NCBI GenBank assembly: GCA_003971905.1
Contig: RSEE01000031.1
Coordinates: 124,001-188,000 of the forward strand
Direction of reading: 5' to 3'
DNA length: 64,000 nucleotides
DNA from: Moniliella sp. 'wahieum'
Taxonomy: Eukaryota
The translations under genes were made by a program, and so were the position numbers. The first letter of the stretch is position 1; every line of letters begins with the position of its first letter. The notes beneath the pieces were generated by a model. The model was not told the origin of the DNA and did not search any database. It was given only the letters and a program-made list of their open reading frames with translations. Positions 2,618 through 60,777 of the stretch are shown here, piece by piece.

Positions 2618-3128
2618 ATACGTCACATGTCACATGCACACGTCATCTCCGTCACGTGCTTGTCGCCTCTCGCACGGGTAGGCTGGGGCAGCCAGCACTA
2701 AGTAAAGGTAGATGCTAGCTTGAAGCTTGAAGTAAGCATGGAGTGGGGCAGCGGAGAGACAGCGCCGGGAAAAGGACTGCCCAAGCGAATATTGAATTTT
2801 GCTTTGCGCCTAGGTACTAGGCAGCCTTGGTCCGAGGGGGGGCACTGGAGTCACATGCTCATGTCACATGTCACAGGTCACTACGTCACTAGTCACTAGT
2901 CACAGATGAATTCAACGACTTGCTTGACGCGTGACGTGTGACGATGGCAACGCCCGGTCCGGCTCGGAGCCGCATGGGGCACTAGGCATGGGGGCAGAGA
3001 CGGACCAAAGTGTCCTCCTACGGCGGGGGGGCGGGTGTCTAAGACACCGGCCGAACAAGTGCTGCGCCTCTGCGGTACGCGTTACGTTTGCATCGGCCCC
3101 ATGGGAACATGGCAACTTTGGCCCCCAG

Positions 3129-3248
3129 CCTGCTGTGCCTGCTGTTCCTGCTTGCCTGCTGTGTCTGCTTGCCTGCTGTGTCTGCTTGCCTGCTGTGTTG
3201 CTTGCCTGCTGTGTCTGCTTGCCTGCTGTGTCTGCTTGCCTGCTGTGC
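3129..3248. repeat. 17-bp minisatellite (GCCTGCTGTGTCTGCTT), about 6-7 copies
   Basis: Tandem copies are directly visible. Confidence 0.9.
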
Positions 3249-6200
3249 CCCATGCACACTATACCCTACCACTGCGCCCTCTTTATAGGATGCCGTCCTT
3301 GCCGAGATACATCGATGCTACATGGTGCCCTTGCATTGGATATTGATTGTTCTGAGTGGCTAAGCCTCAGCGCAGCTCCTCAGCCTTAAGCGCTTAAGCA
3401 TAGACGTGGAGCAGCCGCGCTTGGACCAACGATCAGCGGCTCAGCGCTCAACGCCAGCGCTCCGGGCGCTCAGAGCCGTATGGTTCCATCCCAACTATAG
3501 CATCATCGACATCGATCATCGAGACTGGACAAAATGCACTTGTTGCATGGCTGTGGCTTCAGCCCCCACCTCTCTCCCCGCCACGCACCGTGCCTTGGTG
3601 TGCTTGCTCCACTCGCCTCGACCCGCATGCCCCCTGCTGTAATGTCGATGTCCCACAAAGTACTGAGACCGCCGCTTTTGAAGCTGCACTAGGTACTACT
3701 CATGCATCATGCATCATGCATCATACCTCGTCCCATGCCACGCATTTTTCCTGTTGCGTTATTTGGAGGGAGCATACGATGGAAGATGGAGTACTGACAT
3801 GTTGACCCTGGGGGCGAGTGTGGCGTGAAGAGTAGAACGGGGAGGCTGGGAGGAGCCTTGGTCTGCTTTGGCCTTGAATGGCAACATTCCATTGCACCGC
3901 CCACCCGCCCACTGTGTCTGAGTTCGGACGCATGTCGCGGACGCGTGACGCGTGACACAAGAGTATGTAGGCGGTTCGCGGCTGTCGCAGCAAGCCGCGG
4001 GGGGTCGCAGCCTTCAGCGCCTTCAGCCTCCTCGCAGCGACCGCAAAGCGACCGCATCCCAGTCTACCCAGGCCGACCCACTAGCCCGACACCTGCCCTC
4101 CTGCGCCGGGGCAAGCGTACCGTGTCACGCATCAGTACCATCGATATCGGTACCAGTGCAAATGTCCCCACACATTTTGTCGGCGTCTCAGTCCAGGCCA
4201 CTAGGCCACTGCTGACGGCCAGCGCGCGTCAGCCCCGTCCTCTTCGATTTTAGAACGTGAGGCCCGAGGCGTACAAGCACGTAACCGGGTAACCCCACGT
4301 ACAACCCCACATACAACCCCACCCGCCTTTCTCGGGATTATGCAGCTGCGGAGGCCAATTGCACAGCCAAATTTGCCCTAGAGGTTGAAGACATGTAGAT
4401 AGACGCAGGACTCTCCGTTCGCAGTTCTTTTACCTTCTGTTTTCCCTTCAAGCTTCAACGTCAACCTCTTCAACGTTCAACGTTCAGCGCCGGCAGTCCA
4501 TGGGCACCCGGACTGGAGCTCGGCACAGTAGCGCTAGGCCTTTCTAGACCGACCGCCGGCCATCGTGCACCACATATGGTGCCTCATCGGCATCGATCAT
4601 CGATCATCTGTTTCCCCACCGGCCAGTCTCATCCAGGTTTGAGAATTTACGGGCGACAGGCCACAGGCGGGCCAACGCCCCCGCGACCGCCACACCGGGC
4701 TTGTGTCGCATGTCACATGTCAGCAAACGCAAAGGCTTGTGACTAGGTACTGTTAGCCGCCTTTTTCCTCTCCCCTCTCCCCTCGACCCTTTCGAGGGCG
4801 GGTGGGTTCCTCTTGCGGCTTGCCAGAGAGAGAGAGAAAGAGCGTGCCTGCCTCCCCCGCGCGCCTGCTGAGCGTCGAAGAGTGGATATTGGACGTAGAG
4901 CGAGGCCGCGGGTGGGAAGTGAAATGTGAGACGGGGGGGGGCGTGGGGCCCCGTGCGATCTCCGGATCTTAGATCACAGATCTCAGACTGAGATCTCAGG
5001 GTTTGTGGTGTCAGTTTTCCGACTGGACGCGGACGACGCACTGCCCCCTGCCAGCGTCACGCGTCACTGGTCACTGGCACTGCACTCGTTCCCAGTACCG
5101 GCGACGGGCAACGGGCCTCTCCTTCTCCTGTGGCGCTGGGCAGTGTGCGATGCATCATGCATCATGCGCCATGCGCCATGCGAGGTGGGGGCAAGGGCGG
5201 GCGCACTCGTGCATGTCATGGGTCAGTCTCCTGGGAAGGAACGCCACGCACGGCGCCTGTCCTTCCCGGGAGAAGCCAAGAAGAGAGCAGTGGGCAGGTG
5301 GAACGCAAAATGGGACTAGGGACGCGGCAAGCGAGATGCTCGATGCGGCTTCAAGCTTCAAGCTTCAAGTTCTCTTCAAGTTCACTTCAAGTTCGTTAAG
5401 CTTCAAGCGCTTCCAACGCGAGCGATTCAAGGTACACCTCAGTACCTAGTACACCCCCATCCACTTTTGTCATGAAGCTTGAAGCTTGAGTACTAGGTAC
5501 TGAATACTTTCGGCCGACGCTTCCGGGCTGCCTGCGCATCGCGGAGGAGAACAGGTGGGGCGCTGTATGTTCAGTTGAACACGTTGGACGTGCAACACTT
5601 CAACGTTCAACGTACGGTGAAGCCTGAGGGAGGCCTGAGGCCTGAGGGCTAGCTGAGGGGTTGTGCGTGGCGGACAGCGTGTAGTGGGAGGTCGTCTGGC
5701 AGTTCATGCATCATGTTCATGCGTCCCGCGTCATGGGTTAGACCCTCCCCTCTGAGGCGTAACTAGCTTAACTAGTAACTGTGCTAGTGCGGCGTCGCGT
5801 GAGGCCTGGAGCTCAGCGTGAGCGCCCAGCCAGGCTCAGTTTCCGGGGGGCGGGATATCACACACACGCACTCCGTCATCGATCATCGTTCCCGACCTCG
5901 GCCTCATTGGTTCATCGATTCGATCAGCCCGCACGGGCATCCTGCGAGCCATTAGACAAGTCACAGTTGGCGCTGGGCGCGGGGAGCCGTCTCCCGCATT
6001 CTCCGGCCGGGGCACTGAGCCACTCAGTACTCACTTCTCGAGCTCTCCCCCCCGTGGTTGGGCGAGTCAGAGACAGGCGAGATCCACCGCGGGCAAGCGC
6101 GAGGGCGGTGGAGGAAGCCAGGTCTCAGATGCGCCAGATCTGTTGCACTGCGAGTGGCTGGGTCGGCGCGGCACGAGCCGAGTGTGGGCTGGACACGGAA

Positions 6201-6556
6201 CGGTGAACATCGACGTTAACGTTGACGTTAAACGTAGACCCCCGCACGTGAAGAAGCTGGGGCCTGGCGCCTGGCGCCTGGGGGCTGCTGGGTGCGGTAT
6301 TGGGCCTCGGGCGCGGGAGAGGAGGCGTGTGCGGGCGTGTGCGGGCGTGTGCGGCAGGCGGCCGTAGACGCCCGTTCCAGGTCCATGAGTCGGCGCCAGC
6401 CCACCCGGCGCTCGACGTTTGGCTGGGGTCGTGCTAGGCCATAGCGCCGGATCGCGCTTCTTATCCCCAGAGATCGTCAGGGGGCGGCGGTTAGCAATCC
6501 CCCCCCCCCCAACAACCGCAGCAGGAGAACGTTCGTCCCCTTTCCATTGCCGGTTG

Positions 6557-17647: not shown

Positions 17648-20600
17648 TTACTCGTCCTCTTCTGCTTCAAACTCAGCGTAGTGCCGCGCCTCGAAGGGGG
17701 TCCCGAGCACCTGCGACGCGTACGCGCACACCAGCCCGGCCGCCCCTCCAACCAGAAGGGTGAGGTGAGTAGCAGTGAGAGACAGTGCCGCCGCCACGTA
17801 CCGCGGTCCCCACACCGTGGCCAGCATCAGGTCATCCCGCATCAGTCCCACCCACACTGCCGCTGCCACGCAGGCGACGGACGCGGTACCAGCGTAGCCC
17901 AGCGCTGCGCGCACCAGGTACGGGATCGTCGGCATCGGGTCGTCCACCTCGGTCCCTGGCTCCTTCTTGGCTTCGCTCGTGGCCATCCCACGGGGCGGGG
18001 AGTGTGGCGCCAGAGGACGAGCAGAGGAACAGCAAGCACAACCAGTACGCTTGGCCCCAGCGTGTTGACGGCAAGCAAGATGGGTGCAAAGGGATAGGTC
18101 AGGTGGCGGAAACCAACCAGGCTGTAGCCCATTGGATGCTTGGCATGGTCGCCTGGTGGCCTGTACTAAAGAAGGCGACGTGGGAGAGGAAATGAAGAGT
18201 AACGAGAACAAGGGGCGAGGCGACCTCCAGTTTGCCCCACTCATTAAGCATCCGCACCCCCGCACCAGCCCCCTCCGCCAAACAAAGCACAACCGAAATC
18301 AATAACCCCAGCGCCACCTGCCCCATGGGCTGAGCCAGGAGAAAGACAAAAGATGCAAGGAAGAGCAAGGAGAAGGTAGTGTACTCCAAGCAGGTTGCGT
18401 AGACCTGTCAGAACGGGGCGTTGCACGCCCGGCTCCGATGGCGCCCGCTCTATTTTCAGCTCCAGCGGAAGAGGCGACAGAGGCCAGAGGACCAAGGCAA
18501 AAGGAGTGTAGCACCAATATCCAAGAGGGCAAGAGGACGTTTCAACCAGTTGGACCATACAGCCAATTTTGACGGACGTAATCCCGTCACCCCAGCGGAC
18601 AAGTTGTCGAGGACCCAATACGCCGCACCAACCACCAAGGCGGAACGGAGAAGCCACTTGACATAGAGTTGGATCAGGCGTGTATCTGACTCAGTCAACG
18701 CGGCGGCTAGGCGAACCATAGCTGGCACCAGCCAATATGCCACGGCCAGCGCCAACATCGAAGCCCAAAGACTGTTGGTCGAGGAAGCCATGGGGGAGAA
18801 GGGCGTTGTCTCATTCCCTTCACTAGTCGAGTTGTAAACGTAGCGGGCGAAAAACGTGGTTTGCAATAAGGACCCTGCTCCGCCCGGCACACATGGATCC
18901 CCAGCAAGAAGCGCGTGAGCACAATCCCCAACACAGCCAGAGCACCCGTACGAAGAAGATCCTTCTGTGTCGTGGCCCTTCGCACTGCTGAGCTAGAGAT
19001 GAGGCTCGTAACCCGAAGGCGGGCGCCAGCAACAAAAGAAAGGCAAAGGAGGAGCTGAAGAAGGGTGAATGTCACATGGTCCTCCCACGCAATGAAGTTT
19101 TTGCTCCCTAAAGAAAGTCCATGTATCAGAACAAGGGCCGCAGGGATGATCGTTCCCCGGTGCAGGGATAAGGCACGAATTGTCTTGTCGGGCTTGCCCA
19201 GGAGAATAAGGTTGGCCACAATGAGCTGGCCACAGAAAATGAAGCCCAAACTGACGTGTCCGAACCGGGGGAAAAGCTCAAGAACCGAAACCTCATTGAT
19301 GTGCCCCATCACACCCAGCATCAGGCCCAGCAACGGGCCAGAGAGGATGAAGCTCAACGCAGCTGCTTGTCCAAGAACGCGCGTTGCAGCCCGCAGCCCA
19401 GCAACAGGACGAGGCTTGGCCCCAATCGCGGAACGCAAACGGAAGCAGAAAGCATTCCCAACACAAGTAATGCAAGGCCCGCACCCATGGCCTCAAGGTG
19501 AATGTGAGTCCAGGAGACCTTGGCCCGTGTAAGAACGAGACGAGTATAGGCAAAGTAGGCTTGCTCGGCCGTGCGCGTCAGAGCGGGCGGAGCGGACTCG
19601 AAGCTGGTAGCGCCGCCAGGGCCCAATCCGCTCGGGCAGCGCGTGCCCATGCCGCTTGCAGCTCACGAATAAACCCATTGAAATCCCCTGCCTTACCCAC
19701 ATAGCTTTCAAGGTAGGTGTGAACCTGCAAAGCGTTAATCCGGAGCGCCCTCAGAAGGTCCTCCCCAAAAAGCTCTGGAATGACCGTACCAAGGGAGCTG
19801 AACGGGATAGGCAGCCCATTTAGCAATGCAAAAGTGGGGACAATGTCGACTTGCTGGATGCTGTGGCGAAACTTATCTGGCCCCAGAGGACGCACCTGGC
19901 CCAAGGCTTCGAAAGTGCTGCGGGCCCTATCATCCGGCTGGAGATCATTGGGGAAAGAGAAGGCGTCGGGCACCAAATTGTTGCGAGTTGTCGAGAACAC
20001 GAACGACCCTTGTGGCCTGCCAGTAAATGAAGCGCCAGTCTCGCTGGCCGCAATGTTGCATGAGGTCCCCTCCGCACAAGCCAAGAAAACAAAGTAGTCC
20101 TCCCCCAGAGCAGTAAGGTTCTTGGCCGTAGCGACAAACTTGCCTGGACCGAAGTGGTGACCACGCGTGGAGGATCCGAATGAGACACGTGTTTTCTCAT
20201 TGGGCAAGACGATGTAGTGCAGTCCCTCCCCTCTGGGTAGAGGGGAAGTGAGAGGACGCTTAGAATAGGCAAAGAAGGCGGCAGCCTTTTCGACGTTTTC
20301 ATCTACGCCTCAAGCACCTTGGCATCCATGCCACGGTCCCCCACAACGAACAGAAGAGCGTCTTCTGGCAAATGGGTAGCAACAAAGCGAAGTTGCTCAT
20401 CAACCATTTCCAGCTGACGACTCATCTCTGCATGGTCAAGACTGTCGCTCGAGTGATTGAGACCCCTCATGTGCAACAAGAAGGGACCAATTCCCCGCCT
20501 CAGTTTGGGAGTAGTGGTGGGATCCAACAAGGCGCGAAGATGCGACTCGACACCTTGGTCGGCTGAGGCAAGGCCTTGAATCTTGTGGTAGGGCCAGGTC

Positions 20601-21420
20601 CAGGCCTTGTCAAACGAATTAGGGTACAGATTGAGCCAAGTATCGTCACCGATGAAGGCCAAACCAGCGGGTTCCCTGTCGCGCGCAAGGACTCGTGCAC
20701 GCAGCTGAGCCAGCAAGTTGTCCTCCTCAATCTTGGTCGCACCAAAGTGGGAGCCGGTATGGATAAACGCGGGAAGCACGCCCGTCATCAGAGACTTGAG
20801 CCGTTGAATTGTGGGTGTGGACGGTTCGGAATCAAACTGGGCCAGCAGTGTATGGCCCGGGTGGTCCGACTGCAAAGCAGGAATCGTGTTAAATGCGCCC
20901 ATCACGTCCGGCGTAAACTCGGCATCGCTCCCTTTGTCTGGAGCCAGCGTGGCGGGTAGACTAACTCGGAGTGAAGACCATCGACCACAAATAACAACGA
21001 GCGGTCAAAGCGGCGGGGGAGGGTGCACTCGCCGTGCGCCTTCAAAACATTCGACCAATTGGAGGGAGTAGCTTCACCCTCTGCCACAAGCGCGGCAAGG
21101 GTAGTATCAATGTTGGCAGCAGCCTCAAAAGAGGCATGGCAGTGTGTGCTGTCAGATAGCTCGGTGCGAGTGATGAGGAAGCCCCGGGCGAAGAGCAAAA
21201 GACCAGCAATCTGAGTGATGGCACAAAGGCTAACAGAGCCAATGCGCCACAGCAAAGGCACCAACGATGGCGGGTGGATAGAATCGTTGTCATGTGCGTC
21301 ACCGCTAGCACTGGAACCAGCATTGGGTTTTGGCTTTTTCGACTGATCCTTCGAGGCAGACTTGGTCTGTGGCGAAGACGCCTCCGGTGCCGTACGGCGT
21401 CGCTGCCGCAGGCTGCTCAT
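17648..21420 (-). CDS. GPI13: GPI ethanolamine-phosphate transferase 3 (Gpi13/PIG-O) homologue, divergent
   Basis: LLLFARGFLITRTEL, TIQRLKSLMTG, IEEDNL, FIGDDTW, QVDIVPTFALLNGLPIPFSSLG, FFSTGHQATMPSIQW, LMLATVWGPRY, with a multi-pass C-terminus. Confidence 0.88.
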
Positions 21421-21606
21421 CAACCGGCCGAGAAGATAGGAAAGCGGGAGGGGAGGGAGGAGAAGGTGGTCGCGAGTTCTCGCGGCATGTCCACGGCATC
21501 CCTGAGTTCTGACGAATCTGACGCGCAGGCGGAATTCAAACTGGGGAGATTAATGTTCAGAACCAGGAGGATGTCATGTGATTAATGATTGATTGATTTC
21601 GATGGT

Positions 21607-21977
21607 TGTAATCACCGGTGCACAATAAAGCACGCAAACACCACTCAGTGTAAGGGTCAGGCGATACGAGTGAGGCCAAAAGCACCAAGGGAAGAAAGGA
21701 TGCACTGGTAGGGGAAAGGAGAACAGGAGCGGCGAGGAGCAGTGAGAATATTTACCTCAATAGCTAAGAGGACCGTGACACTCAGGACCACCACAACGAA
21801 CACAATCCACGTATGTGGCAAAAGCTACTATATAGATGACAACGATTTGGCCCATCTAACCATGCCTGGTGCGCAACATAGTATGTTGGTTGACACTCAG
21901 TACTCAACCAACATACGAATAACAACAACACAAGGCACACCCTCCCGGGGGGTTAACAATCTGAGCACAGTATAACA
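21607..21977. mobile_element. Possible solo LTR
   Basis: A 371-bp segment bounded by TGTAAT...ATAACA, with AATAAA, a TATA-like ctatatag and an internal 13-bp inverted repeat. No target-site duplication, PBS or PPT found. Confidence 0.25.
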
Positions 21978-22430
21978 AGAAACGGTGAGTCTCTGTGCGC
22001 GTGTTGGTACGCTACTTGTCTGTATCATAGCAAGTATTACCCGATTTTACGGTGCGTTATAAGCCGTTGGACGCGGGCCTTTTTTACTCTCCGCGTATAC
22101 ATTCTCCACGTATAAAATACTCTCCGATATTGACCCTTTAAGCTTTAATCATCGATCATCGGCGATCAGTAATCATTCATCAGGCCTGGCCTCATGCACT
22201 TCATGCCTATGCCTGCAGGACTCAATATTCACGTGGATAAGGGTAGGTGAGTGTCTGGTATGAACTATAGTGTGTAAGAGATGCATGTCGACATGTGGGC
22301 GGCGGAAACTATATCGACGCCAACCTGTTTGGGACGAGATGCATTTCTTGATGAATGTGGAATGGAACCCGCTGCACAGCCCCGGCTGAGCCGCTGAGCG
22401 CTGAGACTCAGCGCTGAGAATTGGACGGAC

Positions 22431-22451
22431 GGGGGGGGGGGGGGGGGGGGG
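22431..22451. repeat. poly-G tract (21 nt)
   Basis: Directly visible. Confidence 0.9.
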
Positions 22452-25165
22452 TGCTATAGATTTGTTCTGAAATTCACGTGCAAGAACAGAAGTATAGGAT
22501 TAGTGGTCGGGGGAGAGCCCGGCCTGATTAATGTGGTTGCCGTTTTATGCAATGCCGAGAGGGCAATGCTGTGAAGAGTATATATAACTCGAGACACTCA
22601 TAGTTATAACCGGCAACCACCAGGGCATCGGATCCATCAGGTCTCAAGCTGTGTTGGCGCCGCATATTTTCCCGCTTTTACACGCAACATGCATACTGCC
22701 TTGCCTCCCACTTGCAGCCCAAAACACTATCCAGCTTCAAGCTTCAATAAGAAAGCGGAACAAAATGAATGCCATAATGCATAACGTCGGTGCTGGCTGA
22801 GGCCTAGGCCTGATTGATGCCAGGATAACTTGCCACTCGGTCCCACTGCCGCCATCGATTTCATTGACATCAGTCTCTAGCTTCATCGCATCGCGAGCCA
22901 GTGAAGCGGAGAGGTCTGGATCAGACCAGTCCGAGTGTGTGAAGCATTGTGTGAAGTTGAGGAGGCCTGCTCTCAGACTGAGCACTGAGGCTCTCAGTAC
23001 TGAGGCCAGTGAGGGTACTGAGGTTCGGGAACCGGTAACTAGGAACTAGTAACTCGTAACGCGTAACTGTGTTCCCTAAGCGAAACACACTGTGTTCAAT
23101 AAGACCGTTTGTACTCACTGCGGAGGGTCATCGGGGCAACCGGTCACCGGCCATCCGGTCATATACTGGGGGGTCTCACCCGCCCCGATAGGGAGACCCC
23201 AGACCGGCATTGGTCAGAATACTGGTGTGGCCGGATTCGGGTGGAGATCCGGGACCCAAGGTCCGAACGAGCTGCCATGGCCTGAAGAAGGTCTATATAA
23301 AACGCCCTAAATCGCTATACTATACGCGTTCTACTTATACGCGTCGGGCGCGTTACGGCGTACGCTAGGGTCCCCAGGGTACGCCTCGGTGTTTCAGGTG
23401 TGATGATGATATTCACCGAGCGGCTTTGTGATGTGTGACGGCGTGAGCGGGATGCGTGACGCCTGAGGCCTCAGCCTGAGGCCGGAGACTGCGGCTGGTC
23501 GAAAGCTGATCGCTGATCTCGCTGATCTGAGGAGCTGGGGCCTCCTCCAGCTCCTCTAGGAGGATCCATATATCGCGAGGTTAGCTCTGTCGATCACCAC
23601 TGCTCAGCCGCTCAGCGCGCTCACGTTCTAAGTGGGTCTTCGAGTTGTTCACAGCACCTCCGCAAAAACTACATATGCAGAAGCTGTGGTATTGAAGGTT
23701 TTGAACTTTCGATCCGCGGACAACGGCGGAACACAGGGGGAATACCAACGTACACCAGAGAAGGCATATCTAGCGACTCACAGGCCCCGCCCGTGTGAAA
23801 GAGCAGAATACGTATGTCTCTAAAACGCATGTCCTTTAACAGCTAAACGTTAATCGATGTCCTGTAACATGTAACATTTAATCGATCAATCGAGATCGAT
23901 CATGATGGAGATTGGATACCGAGAGACATAACAGAGCGTTAAGTGATGTAAACCACAGATGTGCCCCCGCGACCTCAGCGCCTCATCTTCAGGGTATAGA
24001 AAGCCGGTGTCCTGTAGCGACGCTCTAATCCACCCGGCTATGCAGACCGCAACATGGACGCTGAGCGCTGAAGAGTATAGGGCAGTGGCGTATAGGCGAT
24101 AGCGCATCCACCGTTTTCTGTTCCCGGTGCCTAGGTGTTCTTTCCGTTTCCCGTTCCCACTCCGGTGCGACGACGCCCTGGATGGCCTTTCCCCAATTGT
24201 TGCACCCCGATGTTACCCCGGCTTCCGATGGTTTCTGATGCTTGGCCAGCTTCTTGCCCTCGTCGCCGCTTCAAATTCGAACGGCCTTGAAACCTTGCCC
24301 TCGGTTCTTAGTTTGTTTCTGTTCGGTCGCGTCCAATAACGCACCCGGATTGGTTGTTCCATCACCCCCATCCGCACATCAATCGTACAGTCGGCGTACG
24401 GTTCAAGACGCTCGCGTCCAGCCGGCTAAAGATTTCCCATTCTTCCCGATGGACGACTCGAGCATGCCTGATGGCCAACCGGTTTCGAGCCCACGCCTCG
24501 TTTCCAAGTGAGGTCCAACCCTCAACTATCCAAACCCTTGAGGCTCGCGACGGTTTTCAACAGCTCAAGACGGATTTTTTTTCAGGATCCTCGTCTGCGA
24601 CGTCAACCTCGGTTGCTCTATTCCTTCTTTCTCGTTGGTTAATTTCCGCTCTCCCCCGCGGAGAGGGAGGACCCAGGAGATGCGCGCGGACGCGCATAAG
24701 AGAGATGAGGAGTGGGAGCCCAGGTCGCCAAAAGGCGTGGCGACGGCTGAAAGCCCAATTACCTGTTTATCCTACCAAGTAGGCATGTGTGGACATGCCT
24801 TGTGAAGAGGAGCGTGATGTCACGGGCGAAGACGGGCTGGCAACCCCAGCGGAGTTTACGCGCACGTCTTTCGCCTTCCTGCGCCCTTCGCCTTCCTGAA
24901 AGGATCGAAGAATCTTGAATCTTAAATGGAGAGAGAGGTTGCATGCGATGGCGACTGCGGCAGGGGCAGAGAGAAGGGGAGAGGGCCGATTGATCGGAGT
25001 CCTGACGTCAGTTCATCTCGCCGTCCTATAACTTGCCGCTTTGAGCTTTACCACACACGACGGGGGACGTGACTAACAAGAATTTGGATGTGCAATGTCC
25101 CATTCACCTTTAGCTTATCTCTTCTAGCTTCTACCCATATAGAGAAACCCTTTTAGTTGCATCAA

Positions 25166-25236
25166 AGAGGATGTGGCAGGAAGAAAAAAAAGGCCCCGCT
25201 TTAGAGGATGTGACAGGGAGAAAAGGCCCCCACTTT
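25166..25236. repeat. Imperfect direct repeat of about 35 bp (AGAGGATGTGRCAGGRAGAAAA..GGCCCC), 2 copies
   Basis: Directly visible. Confidence 0.7.
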
Positions 25237-25603
25237 CACTTCGCCACACTCCTTTTAGTAAGGCCGGTAATGCTTAAAGGGCCTTGTTTCGTCACATGCC
25301 ATCTCCTGTTAGACAAAAAGCTATGTCACATGTGACACTGCTAGAGTGCGAATTGTGGGAGCACTCGCGATCCTATGGATCAGCTGCAAACCAGCCTTCA
25401 GACAAGGTGTGAAGGCAAAGTGGTGAGCGGTGAGCCACAAGTCTTCAAGCAACGTCTGAACCGAAGGAGATAGGAGAGAAAGAAGGGATATGAAGCGAGC
25501 AGGGCGTGTGCGCCCGAGAGCGGAACTCTTCCGCCAGGCCTAAGCGAGCGTCACCGATCCACTGAGGGCCGTGCAGGGGAACCCCAGCAGTACCCTGAAG
25601 CAA

Positions 25604-25683
25604 GCGAAGGCTGCGAAGGCTGCGAAGGCTGCGAAGGCTGCGAAGGCTGCGAAGGCTGCGAAGGCTGCGAAGGCTGCGAAGGC
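25604..25683. repeat. 9-bp tandem repeat (GCGAAGGCT), about 9 copies
   Basis: Perfect tandem copies are directly visible. Confidence 0.95.
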
Positions 25684-42737: not shown

Positions 42738-45700
42738 TCAGACTAACGGCAGGTCGAAGGCAAGCGAAGAAAAATCACAGCAAAACGTCAGTCAGTAAGT
42801 AGTACACGGGTCGGTGCGAGCCGCGCGCGGCTCGCTCGCGATCCGATCCCATCCTATCCTATCCCATCTGATGCGATCCGAGAAGGAGGAGAGACGCGAC
42901 GTACAGGAAAACAGGCCTTCCCCGCGACCGTGCTTGCCGCCCAGGAGGTAGTACGAAAGCAACGTTGCGCTGAACAGGCCTACACTCAACCCCAGCGCAA
43001 CCGACAAGAGCGATTCTGCCACCTGGAAGCCCGAGGCGATGGAGGAGCGAGCTGTGACGGTAGAATCGTTGGTATGGGTGTAGTTGGTGTGGCAAATGCC
43101 AACAGGCCGCCGCCTGCCCATCCGGACGGCAGGTAGAGGATGCCCGGTACGGCGACGACAAAGGAGCGTCCATCAAACAACGCGCCATAAATGGAGGAAG
43201 AAACGCCGACGGTCATGCTGCCCAGCATGGCGGCAAAGTCTTGTCGGTTTTGCAGCGCTTTGCTTTGCCGCTAAAGTGGGTCACGCACCACCCGGCAATG
43301 GCCACGAGGGTCATGACGAAAAACTCTTTGCGCACCGGCTTGGCATAGTTGCGCAGCGACAGGCCAATTGCGTACCCTGGCACACAGGAACGCATAGTGG
43401 ATCCCAATCGTCTTGAAGTACCACTCGTCCGCCTATGGGAGCGAGAACAGGTCGAGTCGTCAGTCGCGTCAATCACTTGGCCCGAGATAAAGGTGTATAA
43501 GCTGCGCCGCAAGCACAATGTCAATTGAGTCCCCACAACGCAGAAAAAAGTGTGCGGGATACGCACTGCTCCAATGGACAAGCCAAACCCCTGTCGAGAT
43601 AGCGCATCAAGCATTATGGTTAGTACCCAACCCGACCCCACTACGGGCCCCACCACCCAGCTCGGCTCGACAGCCCCATCCAAAAAGAAGAGAAAGGGGA
43701 CGCACCAAAAAGAGACTATATAGGAAACCATAAACGAGCCGAACACTGCCCGCAATGATCGACTTGCTCTGCAGCTCCAACGAACCGGAGAGAAAGATAA
43801 ACCCAGGCAAGATGAGGACAATCGAGGCGGGGGTGATCGCGGCATAGCAGATTCCACTTGTTCCGTTCTGGTACGCTGCAGCGGCGATGAACGAGTTGAT
43901 GCCGGCAAAGCAGATCTCAAACACATTGGAAAACAGTTCGGCTTTGATGGAGGATGACAAAATACCAGGAACGCTCCGAGTGGGAAAGCAATCAGACAGT
44001 CAACAAAACTCCCGTTAAAGCCCATCGGGCCCGCACAGATCATCGAACTGCACAGTCCCCTACCACCACCATCCAAAAGCGGTTGATGAGGGGTTTGCGA
44101 CGCATCAGCTCGTCCAGTTGCTTGCTGCTTCCTCGACACCGACCTTATCGTGCACAACGTTCCAATAGATGGAATGCAATCGGTCAGTTTGGCTGAGGAA
44201 GAGAGGGTCACAGGTCAGCGTCAGAGCCTCGATCGATCCATAAAGACAGGGGGCCCTGGGAGAGGCAGGGAAAAAGGTACATACATAGGTCAAGCAAGCT
44301 GGGCTGCTTGATAAGCGCGTGTCAGACGTGTGGGTCATATCATCCCCAAAAGAGACGAGCATCAAGGACGGGAGGTAAATACAACGGCATGATATTCCAA
44401 GATCCGCGCGGGTAGACTGAATCTGGGTCTCGATGCGGTGTGTCGGAGCGCCAAACATCATGAGCGCACGAGCAAGCTTGAGCAAGAATTCTTGTCGCTG
44501 CAAGACGGCCGCCACATGGAGCGTGATCTATCCCGTCAAACAGTAACACGACAATCAGTACCCTGAGGGAGATGGTTCAACGTTCACGCAGACAAAGCAA
44601 AGAAATACGTACGTAGATCTCCTCTTTCTTAGTTCGTCGCGCCCGCTTGCGCACCTGCCGCTGCCAATGTTCCTTGTCGTAACGAGCTCCCTTGTGGTGC
44701 ATGCGCTGCTGTTCAGCGGCTGCGGGACCAAAGTAGTCCGTCGCAGCCTCGGACATGGCTGGGGTGGAGGGTGCAGTGCTCATTCGCCATGGTACCAAGG
44801 CACGCTCCGACTGGTTCAGAACAGTGGACAATCCAGAAAGGTGATGATGATGATGATGGGAAGGCGTAGTAGCTCCCGGGTTGGTGGGGAGCGTGGGCTG
44901 AGAAGCACTGACCAAGGGAGTATGCTCCGAGCGTGATCCCTGCGGCACCTCCGAGTCGGGTGTGGCGATGGCTGAGCCAGTAGGGGTAGGGCGGGTGGAA
45001 GAAGAGAGGTGGGAACGAAGAATGCCAGATGTGCGGTACGGTAGCGGAGGTCGAGGCGGTGGACCTGCGGCTTGAGCCACCAACTTGGCCGTCCGGCGCA
45101 TCGTTTTGGCGTTCATCTCAGGCAAAAAGTACCGATCCAAGGTGAAGCCCGGCCGGAAAGGGTTGGGCCCCAACTGGGCCGACGCGGGGGAGACGGCACC
45201 AACCAAGTTGTTGGCAGTCGCGACCAATGCGCCAAACACACCTGCACCATTTCGCGCCGCACGGGGACGTTCTTCCATCTCATAGTCCCCCATGACAAAC
45301 GCCGAGGCGGAAGCCATGGCACTTCCCACATTTCGAATGGCATGACGGCCCTCGTCGATGATGGAGGAACCGTGATCGGCCTTCCTGGTGCCTCCAGGGG
45401 TCATGGACGAGGTGGGCGAAGGGAGAGCCGATCCCATCCGGGAAAAAGGACGGCGGTGAACGCCAAAGGGATTGGGACGGGGGCCATGGCCGGATCCAAT
45501 GGAACTGGGAGGCTGGCTACTTTCCGGAAGAAGGTTGGATCGGCCCTCCTCCCCACTCTGTTCACTGTGAGCATTGGCATTGGACCCACGGAAGGCGTCC
45601 TTCTCAGCCTGGTTCTGCTCGCGTTGCTGTTGTTCGTACAGCATCAGCAAGTTGCCCAACACCCCTCCCGTCGCCACAGGACGGGCGTTCATCCTGGCAG

Positions 45701-47296
45701 TTGTCTGCGCCACCCCAGGCGTGGATTGCCCCGAGTCAGGAAGATGATCCCTTGTAATGGGTTTGGAGGGAAAGAGCATATCCCCTGGCGGGGCCCCCGC
45801 CCCGCGATCGGAGCTAAGACGGGAGGATCGATTGCGTCCTGTGACAAGCCGATGGGCACGAACCAAGCGAGCTGCCTGTCGCTCGTACTTGGACGGCTTG
45901 GGTTTGTCCCCCGTACCACGCAGACCCGTACTGGTCTGCACAGGCACACTCTTGCGATTGGTAGCATGGGATACGTCGCCTTGCCCAGCAGGTGATTCTC
46001 CCACTCTCCCTTCCTCGATCTTTTCTGTCTCCATATCGGGCCTGAGGCCGGTGCGCGTCTGGGAGGACGAAGCGCCCTTTCTGAACAGAGACCGAGCTCG
46101 ACCCAGAACGCCTTTCACATCTGCCTGGACTGATTTCATGCCGTCCTTGAGATGAGTGGGGTCGTGGTGGGAGGAAGGGAGGCGGGCAGGCATCCCATCC
46201 ACCTCGCCCTCGACCATGGGGATGTGGTTCAACTCCGAGTCTGTCATGGGGTTGTAACTTGCATCCGAGGGGGTAGCACTCCCAGATGGAATCTGGGATG
46301 ATGCATCTTGAGGACGACCAAGATTGGATGAGTGTCGGGCGCTGTGGGGGGCACCAAGTTCCGAAGAAGACAGGTTAGGCGTATCGTAGCTTCTGCAGAG
46401 CGGCCGACACGAAGCTTGCCCAGCTGGTACCGCAGTTCCAGGAGCGTTTTCCTGTCGAGACCGCGTGCGTTGGCGTCCTCCTCACCCATTGGATCCGAGG
46501 CGGAAGCTAAAGGAGGGCGATGCGCTTCTGGGGGAAAGTGTTCCCCGCCGAACCGGGCTCTTCAGGGATGGGGGAATCGATCTTGGTATCATGGTACGGA
46601 TGGTTATTGATCGCAGTAGCTTGGGGTGCTTGCGACCCAGCATACTTGGGAAGTCGTTCAGCCAAGTTGAGCGGACCCGGATGGTTCCTCCTGTGTAGCG
46701 AGGAGGTAGTTTTGGCCGCTGATAGCGTTGGGGGGCGGACCAGAGACGGGGAGGAGCAAGAGGAGGAAGGTGCCGATTGCGAGATGGATTGCGGTGTGCC
46801 AGAGGCAGAGGATCGGGTGGCAAGGGGAGGAGGGTTGACCGGGCCTACGCCATGCCTTCCCGCGCGCCTCGGATGGGGGCGCACGCACCGTCACACGTGG
46901 TCCGCTGGGAAGCACTGAGGATGGCACTGGTGCCCGTGCACGTGTGGCTGCGGCAACGGGAGATACACTACTTGGACCTGCGCTTTGGCCAGACATGGGG
47001 TTCTGGAGGGACGAACCGACGGTGTGGCCGCCAAAGCGGACGCGGCGGCCATCTAGGGGCACCGGGGTGGTGCGGGCGAAGCTAGAAGTGGGCGAGGGAG
47101 GGGCGGATTGGAAGGGTGCTGAGGAAGTGGATGCGGAGGCAGGCGCGGACGCGGATGGCAGCGCGTCCCGCTCAGGCGCGGCGGGAGCAGAGGAGGGAGG
47201 GTTGGGGGCGCTCGGGCTGCTGGGGGCGGCGAGGGTTGCGCTGGAGGGTGGGGAGGGCGTGGCGCCGGCGTCATGGCGAGGGCCATCGGCGGCCAT
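42738..47296 (-). CDS. PRM10: Prm10 / DUF1212 (ThrE-like threonine/serine exporter family) membrane protein with a long disordered N-terminus
   Basis: KKEEIY|ITLHVAAVLQRQEFLLKLARALMMFGAPTHRIE, SIVLILPGFIFLSGSLELQSKSIIAGSVRLVY, VPGILYLPSG, VALGLSVGLF. Several introns. Confidence 0.9.
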
Positions 47297-48845
47297 GGCG
47301 GGACGGCGTGGTGGTGGAGAGGGTCAGTCGGACAGACGTCCGCGGACGACCAAGTTAGCAGCATGGACCTCGACCGAGTCCCCAGTTGAGTACTCAGTCT
47401 CACCGGTCAGCTGACCGGTGCCCGATTAAAATTTGGCGTATCTGTCTCTCTCTCGCGCGCCAGACCAGTGCCATCGCAGCCACGCATGCTAAAGCAGGCC
47501 TCTGCTGCAGCCACCCCGCTCAAACTATCAATTCGGTGACCGCTGATCGACGCCGTGGGAGGCCATCAGTGAAGCTAGTGAAGCTTGAAGCTTGACCTGT
47601 CAAGTGACAGGCGGATGGTAGCCGGTGACGGTGAAGCGCGCACAGGATGGAGGATGGAGCTTGGAGGAATGTCGATGGAGTGGCATCCCAACCCCGACTG
47701 TCGGTGGGTTCTTTGGGCGGGCTTTGCCTGGATGTGAGTGATTAGTGACACGCAGCACATCCACGTTGAACGTTCAACTGTGCCGTGCTTGCTTGGCATA
47801 TTTTGGAGTACTGTAGTACCTACAAACAAAACGGTTATAGTTAACAGCTGCTGTTCATCGATCGACTGCGTCGTCATCAACAACTCGTGCATCATATAAT
47901 GGTGGTACGATGTAAGAAATGTTGATAGAATATAGACTGTCGCTTCTCCAGAGACGAGAGCTCTTCGAATCTGCCAGCAAAGGCCTTATATAACCGCAAC
48001 ACTACGTATTTTGACCCCCACCACAATGTGTGCGGTCCCTCCTTGATCCTTGTCATCAAACTAAGGCAATCCCAAAGCTGAGGACGAGAGAATACTGCGG
48101 AGGCGCAGACATTGTCTTATACTTCTCATCGTTTTTCTACAAACGGTGCGGCGGCGAGAAAATGAAAGGGATCAGACGGGCGCTTGAATTTCCGCCCCTC
48201 TGGTGTCAGAGGTGCTGTGCTGTATAGCAACGTCGCAGTCGCATTTGCCTTAGTATGGAGAAGAGCGACAAACGTGATGGTGGAAAAGGACAAGGTGACT
48301 GCTTTCGTGTGGGTTTATACGACCTTTTCCGAAGAGCAATGAGGCACACTCCAGCAGAGCGTGTGGGCCAGACAAAATGCAATAAATGGATACGGCAGAT
48401 CTTCCCTATATATGTACTCGCAGAGTAGAGAGTGTGTAACTCAAAAGACGATTATCATGGCCGAATCGGTTCTCACACTTAAGAGTGCGTACGAGATTCC
48501 GTTCTCCTTTCGTTATAATCCTTGCTATCGAATGAGTCTGTACCTTCAAGCTCAAGGAGCGCTGAACACTGAAACCTACTGTGACAACTGTCTCTAGTGG
48601 AGTTCATCTTCACCGTGACGCTGCACGTACAGGCAGCTGCACATATTCGGCCGTGATACGGGCTGCACGCAGAGCCCGAAGACCAAAAGGAAAAGCTCTC
48701 CAAACTAGGTGGGACGGGCGAGACGAATCAATTCACTGATTGAGTTTCTGTTGTCAAATGTTGGTATGCCTTCGACACAGAGAGCATATCAGCAGAGAGG
48801 AAGAGGCAAAGACCGAGGCTGGCTGTCCGATTCCCTTATTGCGTT

Positions 48846-49682: not shown

Positions 49683-51814
49683 GACACTAGCTGAAAAAGA
49701 TGATGAGAGATGCAGAGGAGAGAGGAGAGCTAGACGGAAGATGGGGATGGTGGTAGCGGTGGTGGCAAGGAGGAGTGTGGCGGAGAAGGCAGCGCCCAAG
49801 GAGACTCAACAAAGTACCATGCACCAAGAGAATCTGATCTTAGACCAGCGCAGTTAACGAGACGGGGTCAGCGCGAGGATATAATTAACCTTGTTCCATA
49901 CCTCTCAGTTGGACCGGCATCTCCGCCCATAGTACTACTAGCAGAGTAAGTGGGGTACAGGGGTACTGCCTGCCGCAACGCGTCGCCACTGTTCCACCCC
50001 GCTGCTGTCCGGGCCGGACATACCCGGCGTCTGTCCATCAGCATCCGCGCGTCAGCCACAGGTAACCAGTGCAACCAACCATCTTCAAGCTTCCGCCTCA
50101 CCGCACACCAACAAGCGACCGGCATCGGCAACACCATCTCCCCGTCATCACGTGTGATGTCACATCTGCCATCATCCAATCACGCGCAGGCACTGCAATC
50201 CCCAATTATCGCACGGGGGTCCTTCCGCGATGGGGAGTGGCAAAACAGAGCCATCTGAAGCGACCCCACTTGGACACCATCGTTATACCCAGCAAACTTC
50301 TGCTTGCCTCTGTCCACCCGCCTGCTCGAAGGCGAGATCGACGTTCTGCATGAATTCCTCGGCTCATATTCCCCGTTTCGCCGATGAGGATACGGATGAG
50401 CGCGAGAAGGATTGGGTCGCATTTGGGAGAGGATAAGAAATTGGCTTTGCGCAAGGCGGTGTGGTCCACCCCCGTTGTAAACACCCTGACCCCTTGACTT
50501 TGAGGAGTAGACTTGAGTTGGAAAGTGCCTTCAACAGCACGCAACCTATGCACCGGGCTCCAGGCCGCACACTTCCGTCTCGCTGACATGCAACCAACGT
50601 TGCTTTCCTGCCAGTTTTTGGGGTTGCCGTTTTGGACGGGACATGGGTCGTCCTCCATCGCCGTCGGCACGCGGACTTTTGCCCCCTGCCCGACATTCAT
50701 GTCATAAACGGGTTTCCTTCTCTCTGAACCGGCAAACCCTTGCTGGGGTGGCGATGAATGAGATGGGGATGAGCAAGGGGTGTTTGGCATTCGCTGTGAT
50801 GCAAGTGATGTGGAAACGTGTAGCTGACAGCTCGAAGGCTGGAGGGATTTCGTATAGTCAGAGTGGCCGGCCGACTTGTCGTGATCAACGCGTCCTGCTT
50901 TGGAAGAGGTGGCACTGCGGCTGTTTACATACAACTCCGATAGTCAGGCCATCCTTTGGTGGGTGGCCGGTGGCGGTGCGCGGCAGGCCGTCGGAGCGAC
51001 TCGTTCGAGTTGTTTTCAAAACTTTTTTTTGCCTGAGTACTCGGTGGGTCAGCGCGTCAGCCATCGCCGACTGGATCGATATCATCGAATCCCTTGCTGA
51101 GAGCCTGACGGGCCTGACGGCCTGAGGGGTCAGCCTGACGGCTCAGCTGCTCAGCCTCCTCCTTCCCGCCTCAGCTGTGCGCCATCTTCGCCAGGCATCA
51201 CCTTCCCCATCATGCATCTGCCATCATATGGCCATCGAACAGGCAATTCGCGCCCCACGTCGGCCCACCCGCCCACGGCCCACCCATCCAAGTGGTGGTG
51301 TCGGTCTTTGGTGGGTGGCCTAACGCCACTGGACATGGTGGGAATCTCGACGGTGGACGCGGAACCGAGTACCTAGTACTGAACGTAGAACGTTGAACGT
51401 TTTGAATGCTGCCCCTCTGCACCAGATCGCACGGGTGGATGGGCTCATTGAGCCATGCTGTAGCTCTGCGCTCTGCTGAGGCGCTGAGGCCCTCTGCTCT
51501 CCGCGGCTCCTCGGCCAGGGGCCAGGCGGCGCCCAGCGCCACGTCCGCGTCATTCCACCCCACCCGCCGTAGCTCACAGCCTCACATGTCATATGTACAG
51601 GCTCAGGCCTGATCGGTCCTGATCGATTGATCTGTTAAACGTTAACATGTTAACAGGGCGTCAGGGGCAACCCGCGCCCCCCCTCCCCCCACCAACCATA
51701 GCAACCCTTTGGCAGTGTTCCTTCACCACCATCATCCACCTCGCTCTGTCTCCCTCTTCCATACGCGAACCTTGGCCGCGCTCTCCATTTCCAACCTCTA
51801 TCGTTACACCCGCC

Positions 51815-57222: not shown

Positions 57223-57799
57223 GGCTGGGAGGGCGATGGGCAGAGCGGTGGGCGGGGTGCGATGGATGCGCCTCCGTGGCTGGCTGGGGGCAACCAGAGG
57301 CCGATGTTCGTGCGAAATGTCAGATGCGCCCTCGTCACGTGTCGTCTGCGTCCCAGCTGCTGCTGTCCACCCGCCGCACACTGGCGCTGCGCGGCCGCTG
57401 CGCTCTTCTGCGCCTGCCGGCTAGGGTTGCCGCCTTGTTACGTGACCGCCCCGCCTGGTGCGTGCATTTCAGCGGCGCCAATGGGAGCAACGCCACGTGA
57501 CCTTCCGTCCCGCCGCTCTCCTCACGTGACTGCATGCCCCCGAGAGCGCACACCATGGGTTCCGCTCCCCGTGGCGGAATGTGGCCAGGCGCGCCGGGCG
57601 AGTGTCGGGCAGTGTGGCAGTGGCCCAGCGAGCGTGGCTGGCGGGGCGGGGGTGCAAGCGCGTGGCCAAAGGCACCGCCCGCTGCCCTTGAAAACTCGCC
57701 TCGGGACAGCGAGCTGCTTGGTCCAACACCCTCCCTCGCTCCCTCGGCGTGCGCCACCCCACCTCCCCTCGTCCCTCTCCCCCTCTTCCTCTGAGTCCC

Positions 57800-59217
57800 A
57801 TGTCGGCTCCTCCCGGCACTGGCGGGCGCAGTGTGGCGCGCGTGTATGCCAACGCCAACCAGCGCTTTGGCCGCAACTGGTGGGACTACGACAATCTCAA
57901 CGTCCAGTGGGGCACCCAGGACAACTACGAGATCCTCCGCAAGGTCGGACGGGGCAAGTACTCGGAGGTATTTGAAGGTGTCAATGTTGGAGGTGTCCTC
58001 CCGCCTCAGGCGCCCATCCCGGCCCCACCCCCGACTCCACCTCTACCTCTACTTCGGCCTCGGACGCGCCCGCTCGGCTCCCTCCGCATCCCTCCGTTCT
58101 CCCGGCCCTGTCCCAGCCCCAGTCCAAACCAGATGTACCGGACAAGTGCATTATCAGGTCCTCAAGCCCGTCAAGAAAAAGAAATCAAGCGTGAGATCAA
58201 TTCTTCAAAACCTGGCAGGAGGACCCAATGTGGTTGGATTGCTGGACGTGGTACGCGACCCACAGGTACGTTTACGCAGTAGGGGGCGGTGGTCCACCTT
58301 TCTATTTGATCCCCCCTTTTTTTCTTTTGGCTGACGTTACCTCCTGTCCCTGTCCCCTTTTGTCTGCAGTCCAAGACGCCCTCGATCATCACTGAGTATG
58401 TCAACAATACGGACTTTAAGGTGCTATATCCGCGCCTGACCGACTTTGACGTGCGGTACTACCTCTTTGAGCTGCTCAAGGTACGCATGGCGAATCCTTG
58501 CCCTTCTCATTTTCTAGGATGGGTTGTCGTTTAGCTGACACTTTCTTTCTAGGCCCTGGACTTTTGCCATTCGCGCGGGATCATGCATCGAGACGTGAAG
58601 CCGCACAATGTGATGATTGACCACGAGAAGCGCAAACTGCGGCTGATTGACTGGGGGCTGGCTGAGTTTTACCATCCTTACACTGAGTACAATGTAAGGG
58701 TGGCGTCGCGCTATTTCAAGGGCCTGAGCTCCTGGTGGATTTCCAAGAGTACGACTACAGTTTGGACATGTGGTCGTTGGGGTGCATGTTTGCCTCGATG
58801 ATTTTCCGAAAGAACCGTTTTTCCATGGGCACGACAACTACGACCACTGGTCAAGATTTGCAAGTGCTGGGGACGGATGAACTGTATGTGTACTTGGACA
58901 AGTACAGATTGAGCTCGATACGCATTACGACGATATCTTGGGCCGATACCCGCGCAAACCGTGGGCTCGCTTTGTCACCCGACGGAACACCAGTTACATT
59001 TCCCCCGAAGCGCTCGACTTTTTGGACAAGTTGCTACGATACGACCACCAAGAACGGCTTACTGCCCAAAGCCCAAGCCCACCCGTACTTTGACCCGGTC
59101 CGGAAGGCCAAAGCAGAACCACAGCAGCCCGACGCACCGATGCCTAATCAGGGTTGCCCTCCTCGCTCTACCCTTCCCACTCCTTGTGTCTTGCTCCTTG
59201 TTCATCCGTTCTGCTAG
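57800..59217 (+). CDS. CKA1: Casein kinase 2 catalytic (alpha) subunit
   Basis: [56 protein letters not shown]. Introns at about 58266-58368 and 58481-58552. The true stop may be TAA at 59145 if there is a frameshift. Confidence 0.97.
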
Positions 59218-60777
59218 GTACTGATTCCCAGTGCTCTTGGTCGCACACATTGGCTACTTATCTCTGGCCTTTCCCCACTCCTCTCCCCTCTCTCCTTATC
59301 CCCTCTCCAAGGCTAGGTCTCCTCACTTTGTGTCTTTTCTTCCTTAGCCCTGTGGCTGTTGATGCATGCTCGATATTGTTGAGCACTTTCGCGGGAAATG
59401 TGTGAGCGAGACGAGAGAGAAGAAGCGAGTGTCGAAGCAGATGGACCAATGCGGGGGAGAGATCAATAGGGGGAGAAACACGATCCTTGGTCAGCCAGGC
59501 AGGCTCAGCAGGGCTCATTCAAGACCGCGGCTCTTCTCGTTGAGGGTGAGAGGCATGTGCGGGGAGGGTTATAATATGGTTGGCAACAAACGGGGGGTCA
59601 TCTGGGATCACGGCCACGCGCAGTCACGACAGACACGACTGATGGATATCTCAGACGAGATTGATGAATGTAATGACGGACACAGGGCACGTGTCCATCC
59701 ATAGTGTGTATCCCGGGCAGTTACCGGTTACCTCCTTCCCGACCCATTACTGCCAAACTGAACGAGGCCAGTCTCTCGAGACGCGTTTGCTTTTTTCGAA
59801 GGAGCAGGGGCTGCTCAGTTGGCGAAGAGCTGCCGAAAGCAGAGACACCGTGCTAACGGGGGTTCTGTTCGCCTGCCTGTGGCTCGGCATCGACTGTGGA
59901 CCAAACAGCACCTGCATCGTTGCACCATATCTCGATCGCTGCCGCTCGGTGGGTGGATGGGTGTCCCCGGTTGTCCCAACACGACAATGCCAGTCTGCGC
60001 GAACCCGAGGCGAGCCAGGCGAGCACAGGCAACCGACTTGCGGGTGCGGGAATCGAGTCCATCATTTACCGAGGGTCACCGGTCACGGTCACTACTTGAT
60101 CGATCCGCAGGGCAGATTGATATTGATTGGGGAAGCACGATAGGTGTGGAATATGCGCACGTGCACACTGCCCAGGTGCTGGGCTGGGATGGCTTGAAGC
60201 TTGATGACGCCATGCAGCGTAGCAAGCTGGCCGTCTCGGGCTAGCGCTAAGCGCGGAACGTCTGACGGCCTTTAGCTTGAACGCGTTACCGGCCCAGCCT
60301 GAGGCCTGAGCGCCTGAGCACCTGGTGCGCGTGAAGAAGGCATCGGACGTCGAACGGACGCAGTCACGCTGGCCAGCCGGCAGTGGTTCGCCGATCGTAT
60401 ATCACCCGCAGACGGTCGCCTTCCATCCCAACCACGCCCGCGTCTACCGCGGCTGCCCCCGGGATGGGGTGGGGTGGGGACGACGGGGACCGGGGACCTG
60501 CGATGGGTACGCCGGTGGGTTGCTAATGCGTGAATACAGAGTGTGAGTGCCGAGTGGGGATGCATGACGCGTGGTGCTGATGTGGGCTGGATGGCTCGTG
60601 CACCCTGGGTGCCCCGCCAGCCCAGAGCCGTCAAGGATCATCGATCACCCCCCAAGGAGACACCTCGATTCGGAATGTTTTGTATCTGGCCAACCCAACC
60701 CCTGCCGCTGTTGTCCCGATCCACCACCCCCACCGGACTCCGTTTCCTCTGTTCCCTACTTGTCTCCTGTAGTCACA

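Follow-up and report, generated by a model that had tools for sequence, protein, structure and literature searches.

Palindromic TNA heptamer arrays in the intergenic DNA of Moniliella: sequence anatomy and a possible origin as excision footprints

The intergenic DNA of a 64-kb stretch of Moniliella sp. 'wahieum' (GenBank assembly GCA_003971905.1, contig RSEE01000031.1, positions 124,001 to 188,000; hereafter the window, with coordinates counted from its first base) carries many short repeats in which the trinucleotide TNA recurs every 7 bp around a 4-bp palindrome of variable sequence. The pattern was confirmed in the window as real, very strong, and highly nonrandom. All counts given here refer to these 64 kb, so that the pattern is described as window-wide. 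We tentatively read the arrays as excision footprints left by a cut-and-paste DNA transposon or a nuclease of transposon origin, an origin to which we give slightly less than an even chance. In a literature search, which was not exhaustive, heptamer arrays of the TNA-palindrome type were nowhere described.

The TNA-palindrome-TNA pattern

The string TNA-N4-TNA was found 204 times, and its N4 was a perfect palindrome in 91 cases. Markov simulations (100 for each order) predicted far fewer palindromic spacers, namely 7.6 ± 2.6 with a maximum of 15 at order 1, 7.0 ± 2.6 with a maximum of 14 at order 3, and 16.2 ± 4.3 with a maximum of 26 at order 5. A previous reading of this DNA from its letters only (the sequence-only reading) had proposed testing for such an excess over a Markov background and had noted the use of many different palindromes, and both the excess and the variety were confirmed. 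Fifteen of the 16 possible 4-bp palindromes were used as spacers, roughly in proportion, TATA being the one absent. When spacers of 0 to 12 bp were compared, enrichment appeared at 4 bp only (91 versus 6.6 expected), and direct TNA-TNA junctions (spacer of 0) were at expectation (122 versus 125). The core was just as specific, since TNA was the only one enriched among the 16 XNY cores (91 versus 7.2 expected, or 70 versus 2.6 when both copies had the same N), while the other self-complementary cores remained at expectation (4 versus 5.7 for ANT, 23 versus 21.7 for CNG, and 24 versus 24.7 for GNC). The restriction to a single core points to a sequence-specific enzyme.

The central base itself follows trinucleotide frequencies, with a TSA:TWA ratio of 73:27 (529:197 within the motif-rich blocks and 1357:504 elsewhere). 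In the 91 matches, the N of the two TNAs was the same in 70, complementary in 15, and neither in 6. Spacers with one mismatch to a palindrome numbered 53, for a background of roughly 40 to 48, compared to the 91 perfect ones for which about 7 were expected.

The 91 matches form 78 separate loci, of which 56 fall within two large gene-free blocks that also hold most of the matches. The block at 2200 to 6350 contains 29 loci (about one per 143 bp) and the one at 21500 to 27950 contains 27 (about one per 239 bp), evenly spread in both. Smaller intergenic blocks were found at 47300 to 47900 (5 matches), 51000 to 51800 (4 matches plus variants of period 8 and 9), and 59600 to 60700 (5 matches). Only one match lies within the 13,270 nt of open reading frames (ORFs) supported by Pfam, in agreement with the claim of the sequence-only reading that the pattern is intergenic and not coding. 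A test for clustering of the loci found none; they are spread evenly through the gene-free DNA with no crowding near gene starts. The strand on which TCA rather than TGA is read shows local runs but no consistent relation to the flanking or downstream genes.

The 7-bp period is also clear in other measures. TNA autocorrelation in the motif-rich blocks reached 135 at lag 7 against a background of about 45, whereas outside the blocks it was flat and had no lag-7 peak. Direct repeats within the blocks were in excess at period 7 (119 versus 10.0 expected), and also at period 8 (53 versus 12.5), period 9 (51 versus 10.3), and period 6 (38 versus 10.6). Period 7 accounted for 47 of the 142 rows of the Tandem Repeats Finder (TRF) output by our own count. 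Of the 53 perfect runs with a period of 7 and a length of 14 nt or more, 28 had TNA plus a 4-bp palindrome as their unit, and most arrays consist of just two copies of the unit.

Duplication and symmetry in the repeat unit

Put differently, the arrays consist of a 7-bp odd quasi-palindrome, y'x'-TNA-xy (x' and y' being the complements of x and y), in near-tandem copies, since two adjacent copies automatically form the 4-bp palindrome xy-y'x'. TNA-centered odd palindromes were at expectation outside period-7 runs (46 versus 44.4), and the whole of their excess was located inside such runs (81 versus 0.7 expected), indicating that symmetry and duplication arise together. This result supports the suggestion of the sequence-only reading that symmetry is being created by the underlying process and that no particular sequence is being conserved.

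Among 63 distinct runs with the same N in both copies, 36 were shorter than 14 nt and the mode was 12 nt (18 runs). All 18 of these had the structure TNAxy-y'x'-TNAxy or its mirror image, with 8 in phase (0,2), 10 in phase (2,0), and none in the symmetric phase (1,1). Relative to all 12-nt period-7 runs with a unit of TNA plus a 4-bp palindrome (TNA-symmetric runs), of which there were 24 for 0.70 expected, these two of the seven possible phases held 18. No partial extension into the flanks of the 12-nt runs was seen, and most runs are too short for a copying of preexisting sequence. Among 112 runs of the form W5-Z2-W5, P-type junctions (so called after the palindromic P nucleotides left by opened hairpins) numbered 18 of the TNA type and 16 others, against about 12 expected for the latter, and they were above chance only where TNA formed the outer end of W. 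A typical member of the modal class is TGAGA-TC-TGAGA at 2376 to 2387 (plus strand), a 5-nt direct repeat around the reverse complement of its own last two bases and with unrelated flanks, which we read as a first-generation footprint.

Two further classes preserve the same anatomy. Those with complementary N are perfect 10-bp palindromes, several of which are followed by xy again, as in TCACATGTGA at 25326 to 25335, where the palindrome continues with CA (equal to xy). The same N in 70 of the 91 matches and a complementary one in 15 imply that each TNA was copied from its neighbor, either directly or in inverted form. The other class has a period of 8 bp, and in 5 of its 13 runs of 15 nt the T at position 3 and the A at position 5 of the heptamer (T3/A5) were exactly in phase (0.8 expected). 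In four of these five, the extra base complements an adjacent one. The run GCTGAGC-C-GCTGAGC at 22385 to 22399 (plus strand), for instance, has an exact nnTnAnn 7-mer twice around a single base complementary to its neighbor. In asymmetric runs, the orientation of N was not significantly biased (22 G versus 16 C).

The longer arrays, all given here on the plus strand, show how units are combined. The longest perfect one is TCATGCA repeated 3.6 times at 3700 to 3724 (four TCA and three TGCA); another array is GCTTCAA repeated 3.1 times at 5348 to 5369 (TCA-AGCT). The compound array at 2850 to 2904 keeps TCA in phase while its spacers run CATG, CATG, CAGG, CTAC (plus one base), CTAG, and CTAG. 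At 23865 to 23888 the spacer switches within one array (TAA-CATG-TAA-CATT-TAA-TCGA-TCA) with the 7-bp phase kept, and at 39182 to 39196 there is a variant with a spacer of 2 bp (TCA-GC-TGA-GC-TCA). Both had been pointed out by the sequence-only reading, together with 12 example loci, and all of them read as it described.

The stretch at 26840 to 26941, in the second gene-free block, contains (C)CTGAG 11 to 12 times at spacings of 7, 7, 7, 11, 8, 9, 11, 9, 7, 8, and 8 bp and is the densest mixed-period case of the TNA-palindrome grammar. In the small block at 47300 to 47900, positions 47401 to 47420 are a perfect 20-bp palindrome (CACCGGTCAG joined to CTGACCGGTG) made of two inverted TCA/CCGG units, near which, at about 47596 to 47611, an inverted pair of 7-mers is found (CCTGTCA-AG-TGACAGG).

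Possible origin of the arrays

The anatomy is what one would expect from a target duplication combined with P nucleotides. Duplication is indicated by the period fixed at 7 bp, the exact 7-mers in period-8 runs, and the identical N in 70 of 91 matches, and P nucleotides by junctions that read as the reverse complement of the flank beside them. In the scheme that we favor, an element would insert at nnTnAnn (pqTNArs) and duplicate the 7-bp target, its excision would seal both flanks into hairpins, and host enzymes would nick these 2 to 3 nt from the tip, leaving palindromic (P-nucleotide) extensions. End joining would then retain one extension and trim the other flank. One would thereby obtain pq-TNA-rs-s'r'-TNA-rs, or the mirror of this, in which a 4-bp palindrome stands between two TNAs at a 7-bp period and takes its letters from the two bases adjoining TNA. 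Nicks at 2 and at 3 nt would give the same product because T and A are complementary. Nicks farther out (4 to 5 nt) could generate the complementary N and the perfect 10-bp palindromes, an untrimmed junction with a 1-nt extension could generate the period-8 form, and reinsertion into a footprint, or later slippage, could build the arrays of three to four units. What the analysis shows is the sequence anatomy with its statistics, from which we infer that a transposon or nuclease acted, that hairpins formed, and in which order the events took place.

Such footprints would build up only where an insertion of 7 bp is harmless, i.e., in intergenic DNA. The even spread in gene-free DNA and the near absence from coding ORFs are as expected of neutral scars. 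A simple decay model applied to about 14 excess one-mismatch and about 84 excess perfect spacers would place the footprint activity within roughly 0.09 substitutions per site of the present, or would point to active turnover. The sequence-only reading had also offered, as one option, a 7-bp duplication of NN-TNA-NN with hairpin-opened flanks, and its predictions are borne out by the phase of the 12-nt runs (18 of 18), the complementary N (15 of 91), and the 7-mers of the period-8 class, while the agent itself remained unseen.

A number of observations weigh against an excision origin. No transposon bearing terminal inverted repeats (TIRs) together with a target-site duplication (TSD), such as the sequence-only reading had envisaged along with its transposase, was found in the 64-kb window: a scan for TIRs flanked by TSDs of 3, 5, 7, 8, and 9 bp gave only hits at chance level or derived from the arrays, there was no transposase domain in the 96 ORFs scanned with Pfam, and neither dispersed repeats nor miniature inverted-repeat transposable elements of 24 nt or more were present in the window. 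No superfamily known to us combines a 7-bp TSD with a T3/A5 target, and the features predicted for classical hAT elements in the window, junction palindromes with a flipped base at their center and A-N-T as the core, were not enriched. Simple retention of both TSD copies with nonpalindromic flanks was rare, being seen in two 14-mers (at 23505 and 25422), and the period-9 form (7-mer, two P nucleotides, and 7-mer) was not seen in the window. The density of loci is very high (one per 143 to 239 bp, within motif-rich blocks whose borders were drawn after the matches had been seen), the arrays of three to four units require repeated events or slippage, and the end phases differ among runs of more than 14 nt. 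One 8-bp candidate from the TIR plus TSD scan, CTAGGTAC at 3689 and 5493, was rejected as part of a separate recurring motif (see below).

The known systems closest to the arrays each share only part of their features. hAT elements have the target consensus nTnnnnAn, which predicts A-N-T cores, and those were at expectation here. Membership in the classical hAT group thus fails on the 7-bp duplication, the T3/A5 target, the even junction palindrome, and the unenriched A-N-T, and the hAT-like P-nucleotide footprint of the sequence-only reading is, in its classical form (8-bp TSD, nTnnnnAn, and flipped-base palindromes), a misfit. In the paper on Abr1 of Agaricus, a 7-bp TSD with a consensus is reportedly given. 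ABR1 is elsewhere described as hAT-type in the passages cited here (PMC10051438). According to the parts of the literature on which we draw, hAT, Transib, RAG, and MULE enzymes form hairpins on the flanks, which the host opens and end joining converts into footprints (PMC5499845). The footprints of Ac/Ds in Candida albicans and Saccharomyces cerevisiae are there reported as short deletions and palindromic insertions, often joined at microhomologies (PMC5873905). As in Ac/Ds, both target copies stay here, with P-nucleotide junctions and short deletions, but the Ac/Ds duplication is 8 bp and its palindromes are centered on the complement of the element-adjacent base in those passages (PMC5873905), whereas the present arrays have a 7-bp duplication, an even junction palindrome (xy-y'x'), and a T3/A5 target.

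Among basidiomycete DNA transposons, the hAT7 families of the Pucciniales and Kyakuja of Laccaria have 7-bp TSDs in the source as cited (PMC12730594). They share with the arrays the length of the duplication and the phylum, and the superfamily of hAT7 is one that forms hairpins on its flanks (PMC5499845); however, the passages available give no target consensus or footprints for them (PMC12730594), and no such element or transposase was found in the window. The Galileo element (P superfamily) has the palindromic 7-bp TSD consensus GTANTAC, target motifs of transposable elements being generally palindromic in that account (PMC4168063). Galileo resembles the arrays in its 7-bp duplication and its palindromic consensus around a free central base, but it is an animal element, its consensus is centered on A-N-T with fixed outer bases, and what the cited passages describe are insertions and not footprint arrays (PMC4168063).

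Among the rival explanations, an origin in replication makes an element unnecessary. A nascent strand could fold back after ...TNAxy, copy 2 to 3 of its own bases (y'x'T), and realign with the T of TNA, which would lengthen it by 7 bases. Slippage would then expand or contract these hairpin-prone units, and the arrays would be a special class of heptanucleotide microsatellites with self-complementary units. The 12-nt product is indeed obtainable through two template switches, direct repeats of periods 6 to 9 are all in excess within the blocks, and arrays such as that at 5150 to 5182 contain duplicated variant units. However, any self-complementary cNc' core should serve in this process, yet ANT, CNG, and GNC show no excess, and slippage should leave the end phases random, whereas only two of the seven are found in the 12-nt class. 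A metagenome scan with the degenerate 24-nt array pattern (WGCWTSA)n gave at least 121 loci, and among the matches listed there was no multi-palindrome grammar around the seed array, TNA palindromes being at chance level, which also counts against replication. No relative sharing the grammar emerged from these matches. Two-copy 7-mers are, besides, far below the usual length for efficient slippage. We regard this replication route as unlikely. Fold-back as the main route was rejected, as the same N exceeds the complementary N (70 versus 15). Simple slippage does not fit the arrays either. Heptanucleotide microsatellites made by slippage would share with the arrays the short head-to-tail 7-bp structure and the duplicated variant units, but not the single symmetry rule of 28 of the 53 perfect runs, the modal 12 nt in fixed phase (18 of the 24 TNA-symmetric 12-nt runs in two phases), or the predominance of two copies.

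A host nuclease, e.g., a domesticated transposase, or another endogenous cycle of break and repair might produce the arrays without a mobile element by cutting nnTnAnn in open intergenic chromatin with a 7-nt stagger, followed by turn-around fill-in or hairpin opening. It predicts the same sequence signature as a transposon and accounts both for the lack of an element in the 64 kb and for the even spread. We nevertheless consider it distinctly unlikely; there is no candidate gene in the window (96 ORFs scanned with Pfam), an enzyme or pathway of this sort is not known to us, and a fixed, TSD-like 7-bp duplication is a hallmark of transposase strand transfer that would not be expected from simple cleavage. 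The arrays could also be a cis-regulatory grammar, i.e., clusters of sites for dimeric factors with TGA/TCA half-sites (bZIP, bHLH, or TALE homeodomain), with their symmetry kept by promoter selection. The gene-free DNA in which they are located takes in divergent promoter regions, some units are shared by many loci (TGTGACAT 15, TGATCGAT 16, and AAGCTTCA 14 times), and the scarcity of one-mismatch spacers beside the perfect ones could be understood in the same way. But a protein cannot require complementarity without identity, and the 15 palindromes in use, the background-like N, and the even spread without crowding at gene starts do not fit a cluster of transcription factor sites. In addition, the end-phase rule has no regulatory rationale, and the TCA/TGA strand is independent of the downstream gene. 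Such a grammar therefore appears very improbable.

Of other types of transposon, PIF/Harbinger- or CACTA-like elements might leave a 3-bp TNA duplication together with two TIR-terminal bases from each end (TNA-xy y'x'-TNA), so that the inverted repeats would give the palindromic 4-mer automatically. PIF/Harbinger elements typically have 3-bp TSDs of the TNA type and extended targets that are palindromic. Canonical Harbinger elements have 3-bp TSDs in the passages cited (PMC12730594). This explanation was nonetheless largely refuted by the run-phase data and keeps hardly any probability: the flank-unrelated 10-nt runs that it predicts make up only 6 of 63, while a flank-templated extension of 2 nt is seen in 18, TNA-TNA duplications are at expectation (122 versus 125), about 15 families with different termini would be required, and the period-8 class of exact 7-mers is left unexplained. 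A 5-bp TSD with P nucleotides was also rejected, as the P-type dinucleotide always points away from TNA, which is impossible from a symmetric 5-bp target. Excision footprints, with the reservations given above, remain the origin that we favor, and the interpretation of the sequence-only reading was, overall, partly supported.

Genomic setting and significance

By its genes, the window is ordinary, densely packed, intron-bearing nuclear fungal DNA. The Pfam scan covered 96 ORFs (24 plus 72) and supported genes for an MFS transporter, an aldehyde dehydrogenase, an mRNA triphosphatase, ribosomal protein S3Ae, and zf-UBP, Tmemb_14, and importin proteins, as well as for 6PGD, a thiolase, a Glu/Gln-tRNA synthetase, an aminotransferase, a kinase, and TauD. 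The 335-amino-acid exon of the 6-phosphogluconate dehydrogenase had its best identities with Tilletiaria (77%) and Tilletia (76%), and on such comparisons the DNA is broadly placed in a Ustilaginomycotina-like basidiomycete that lacks a close named relative. Long ORFs without a Pfam family were found at 303 to 1781, 17651 to 21549, and 43216 to 46481, all on the minus strand. Within the last of these, the fast-evolving ORF at 44580 to 46481 had only distant relatives, namely contigs at 55% and 49% and, as the best named one, the "pheromone-regulated membrane protein 10" of Ceraceosorus (38%).

The two blocks devoid of genes, which measure 4 and 6.4 kb, stand out in this otherwise gene-dense window. 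No ORF scanned within 2200 to 6350 or 21500 to 27950 gave a Pfam match. The footprints contribute just a few hundred bases, so that the length of these stretches is unexplained by them. Other repeats are found here too, including a 17-bp tandem repeat (CTGCTTGCCTGCTGTGT, about seven copies with 95% matches) at 3130 to 3247 in the first block and a perfect 9-bp tandem repeat (GCGAAGGCT, 8.9 copies) at 25604 to 25683 in the second. A run of 21 G is located at 22431 to 22451, with a related G-rich stretch at 4930 to 4959. The 8-mer CTAGGTAC occurs eight times (0.7 expected), at 2810, 3689, 4743, 5442 (minus strand), 5493, 13135, 51369 (minus strand), and 59214, usually as (g)TACTAGGTACT(g). This intergenic motif recurs independently of the TNA palindromes, is of another kind, and may represent an element of promoters.

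A bolder version of the footprint origin can be formulated, although we find it doubtful. An enzyme of the fungus itself, or an undescribed element with a T3/A5 7-bp target, might cut T-N-A across open intergenic DNA and drive an active, symmetry-writing mutational process. Each event would add 7 bases, and the process would give rise to heptanucleotide microsatellites and make up a share of the fixed intergenic mutations.

If the excision origin is true, scars of a transposon or of a transposase-like enzyme would occur once per 150 to 250 bp of intergenic DNA, and the target (nnTnAnn), the 7-bp stagger, and the host opening of hairpins would be readable from the sequence in the absence of the element. 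The arrays would also be a clear natural case of the birth of microsatellites from footprints, and promoter regions would be shaped by an indel signature specific to the lineage. The 7-bp nnTnAnn duplications provide a search key for the responsible element, and the arrays are presumably fast-evolving markers for this fungal lineage.

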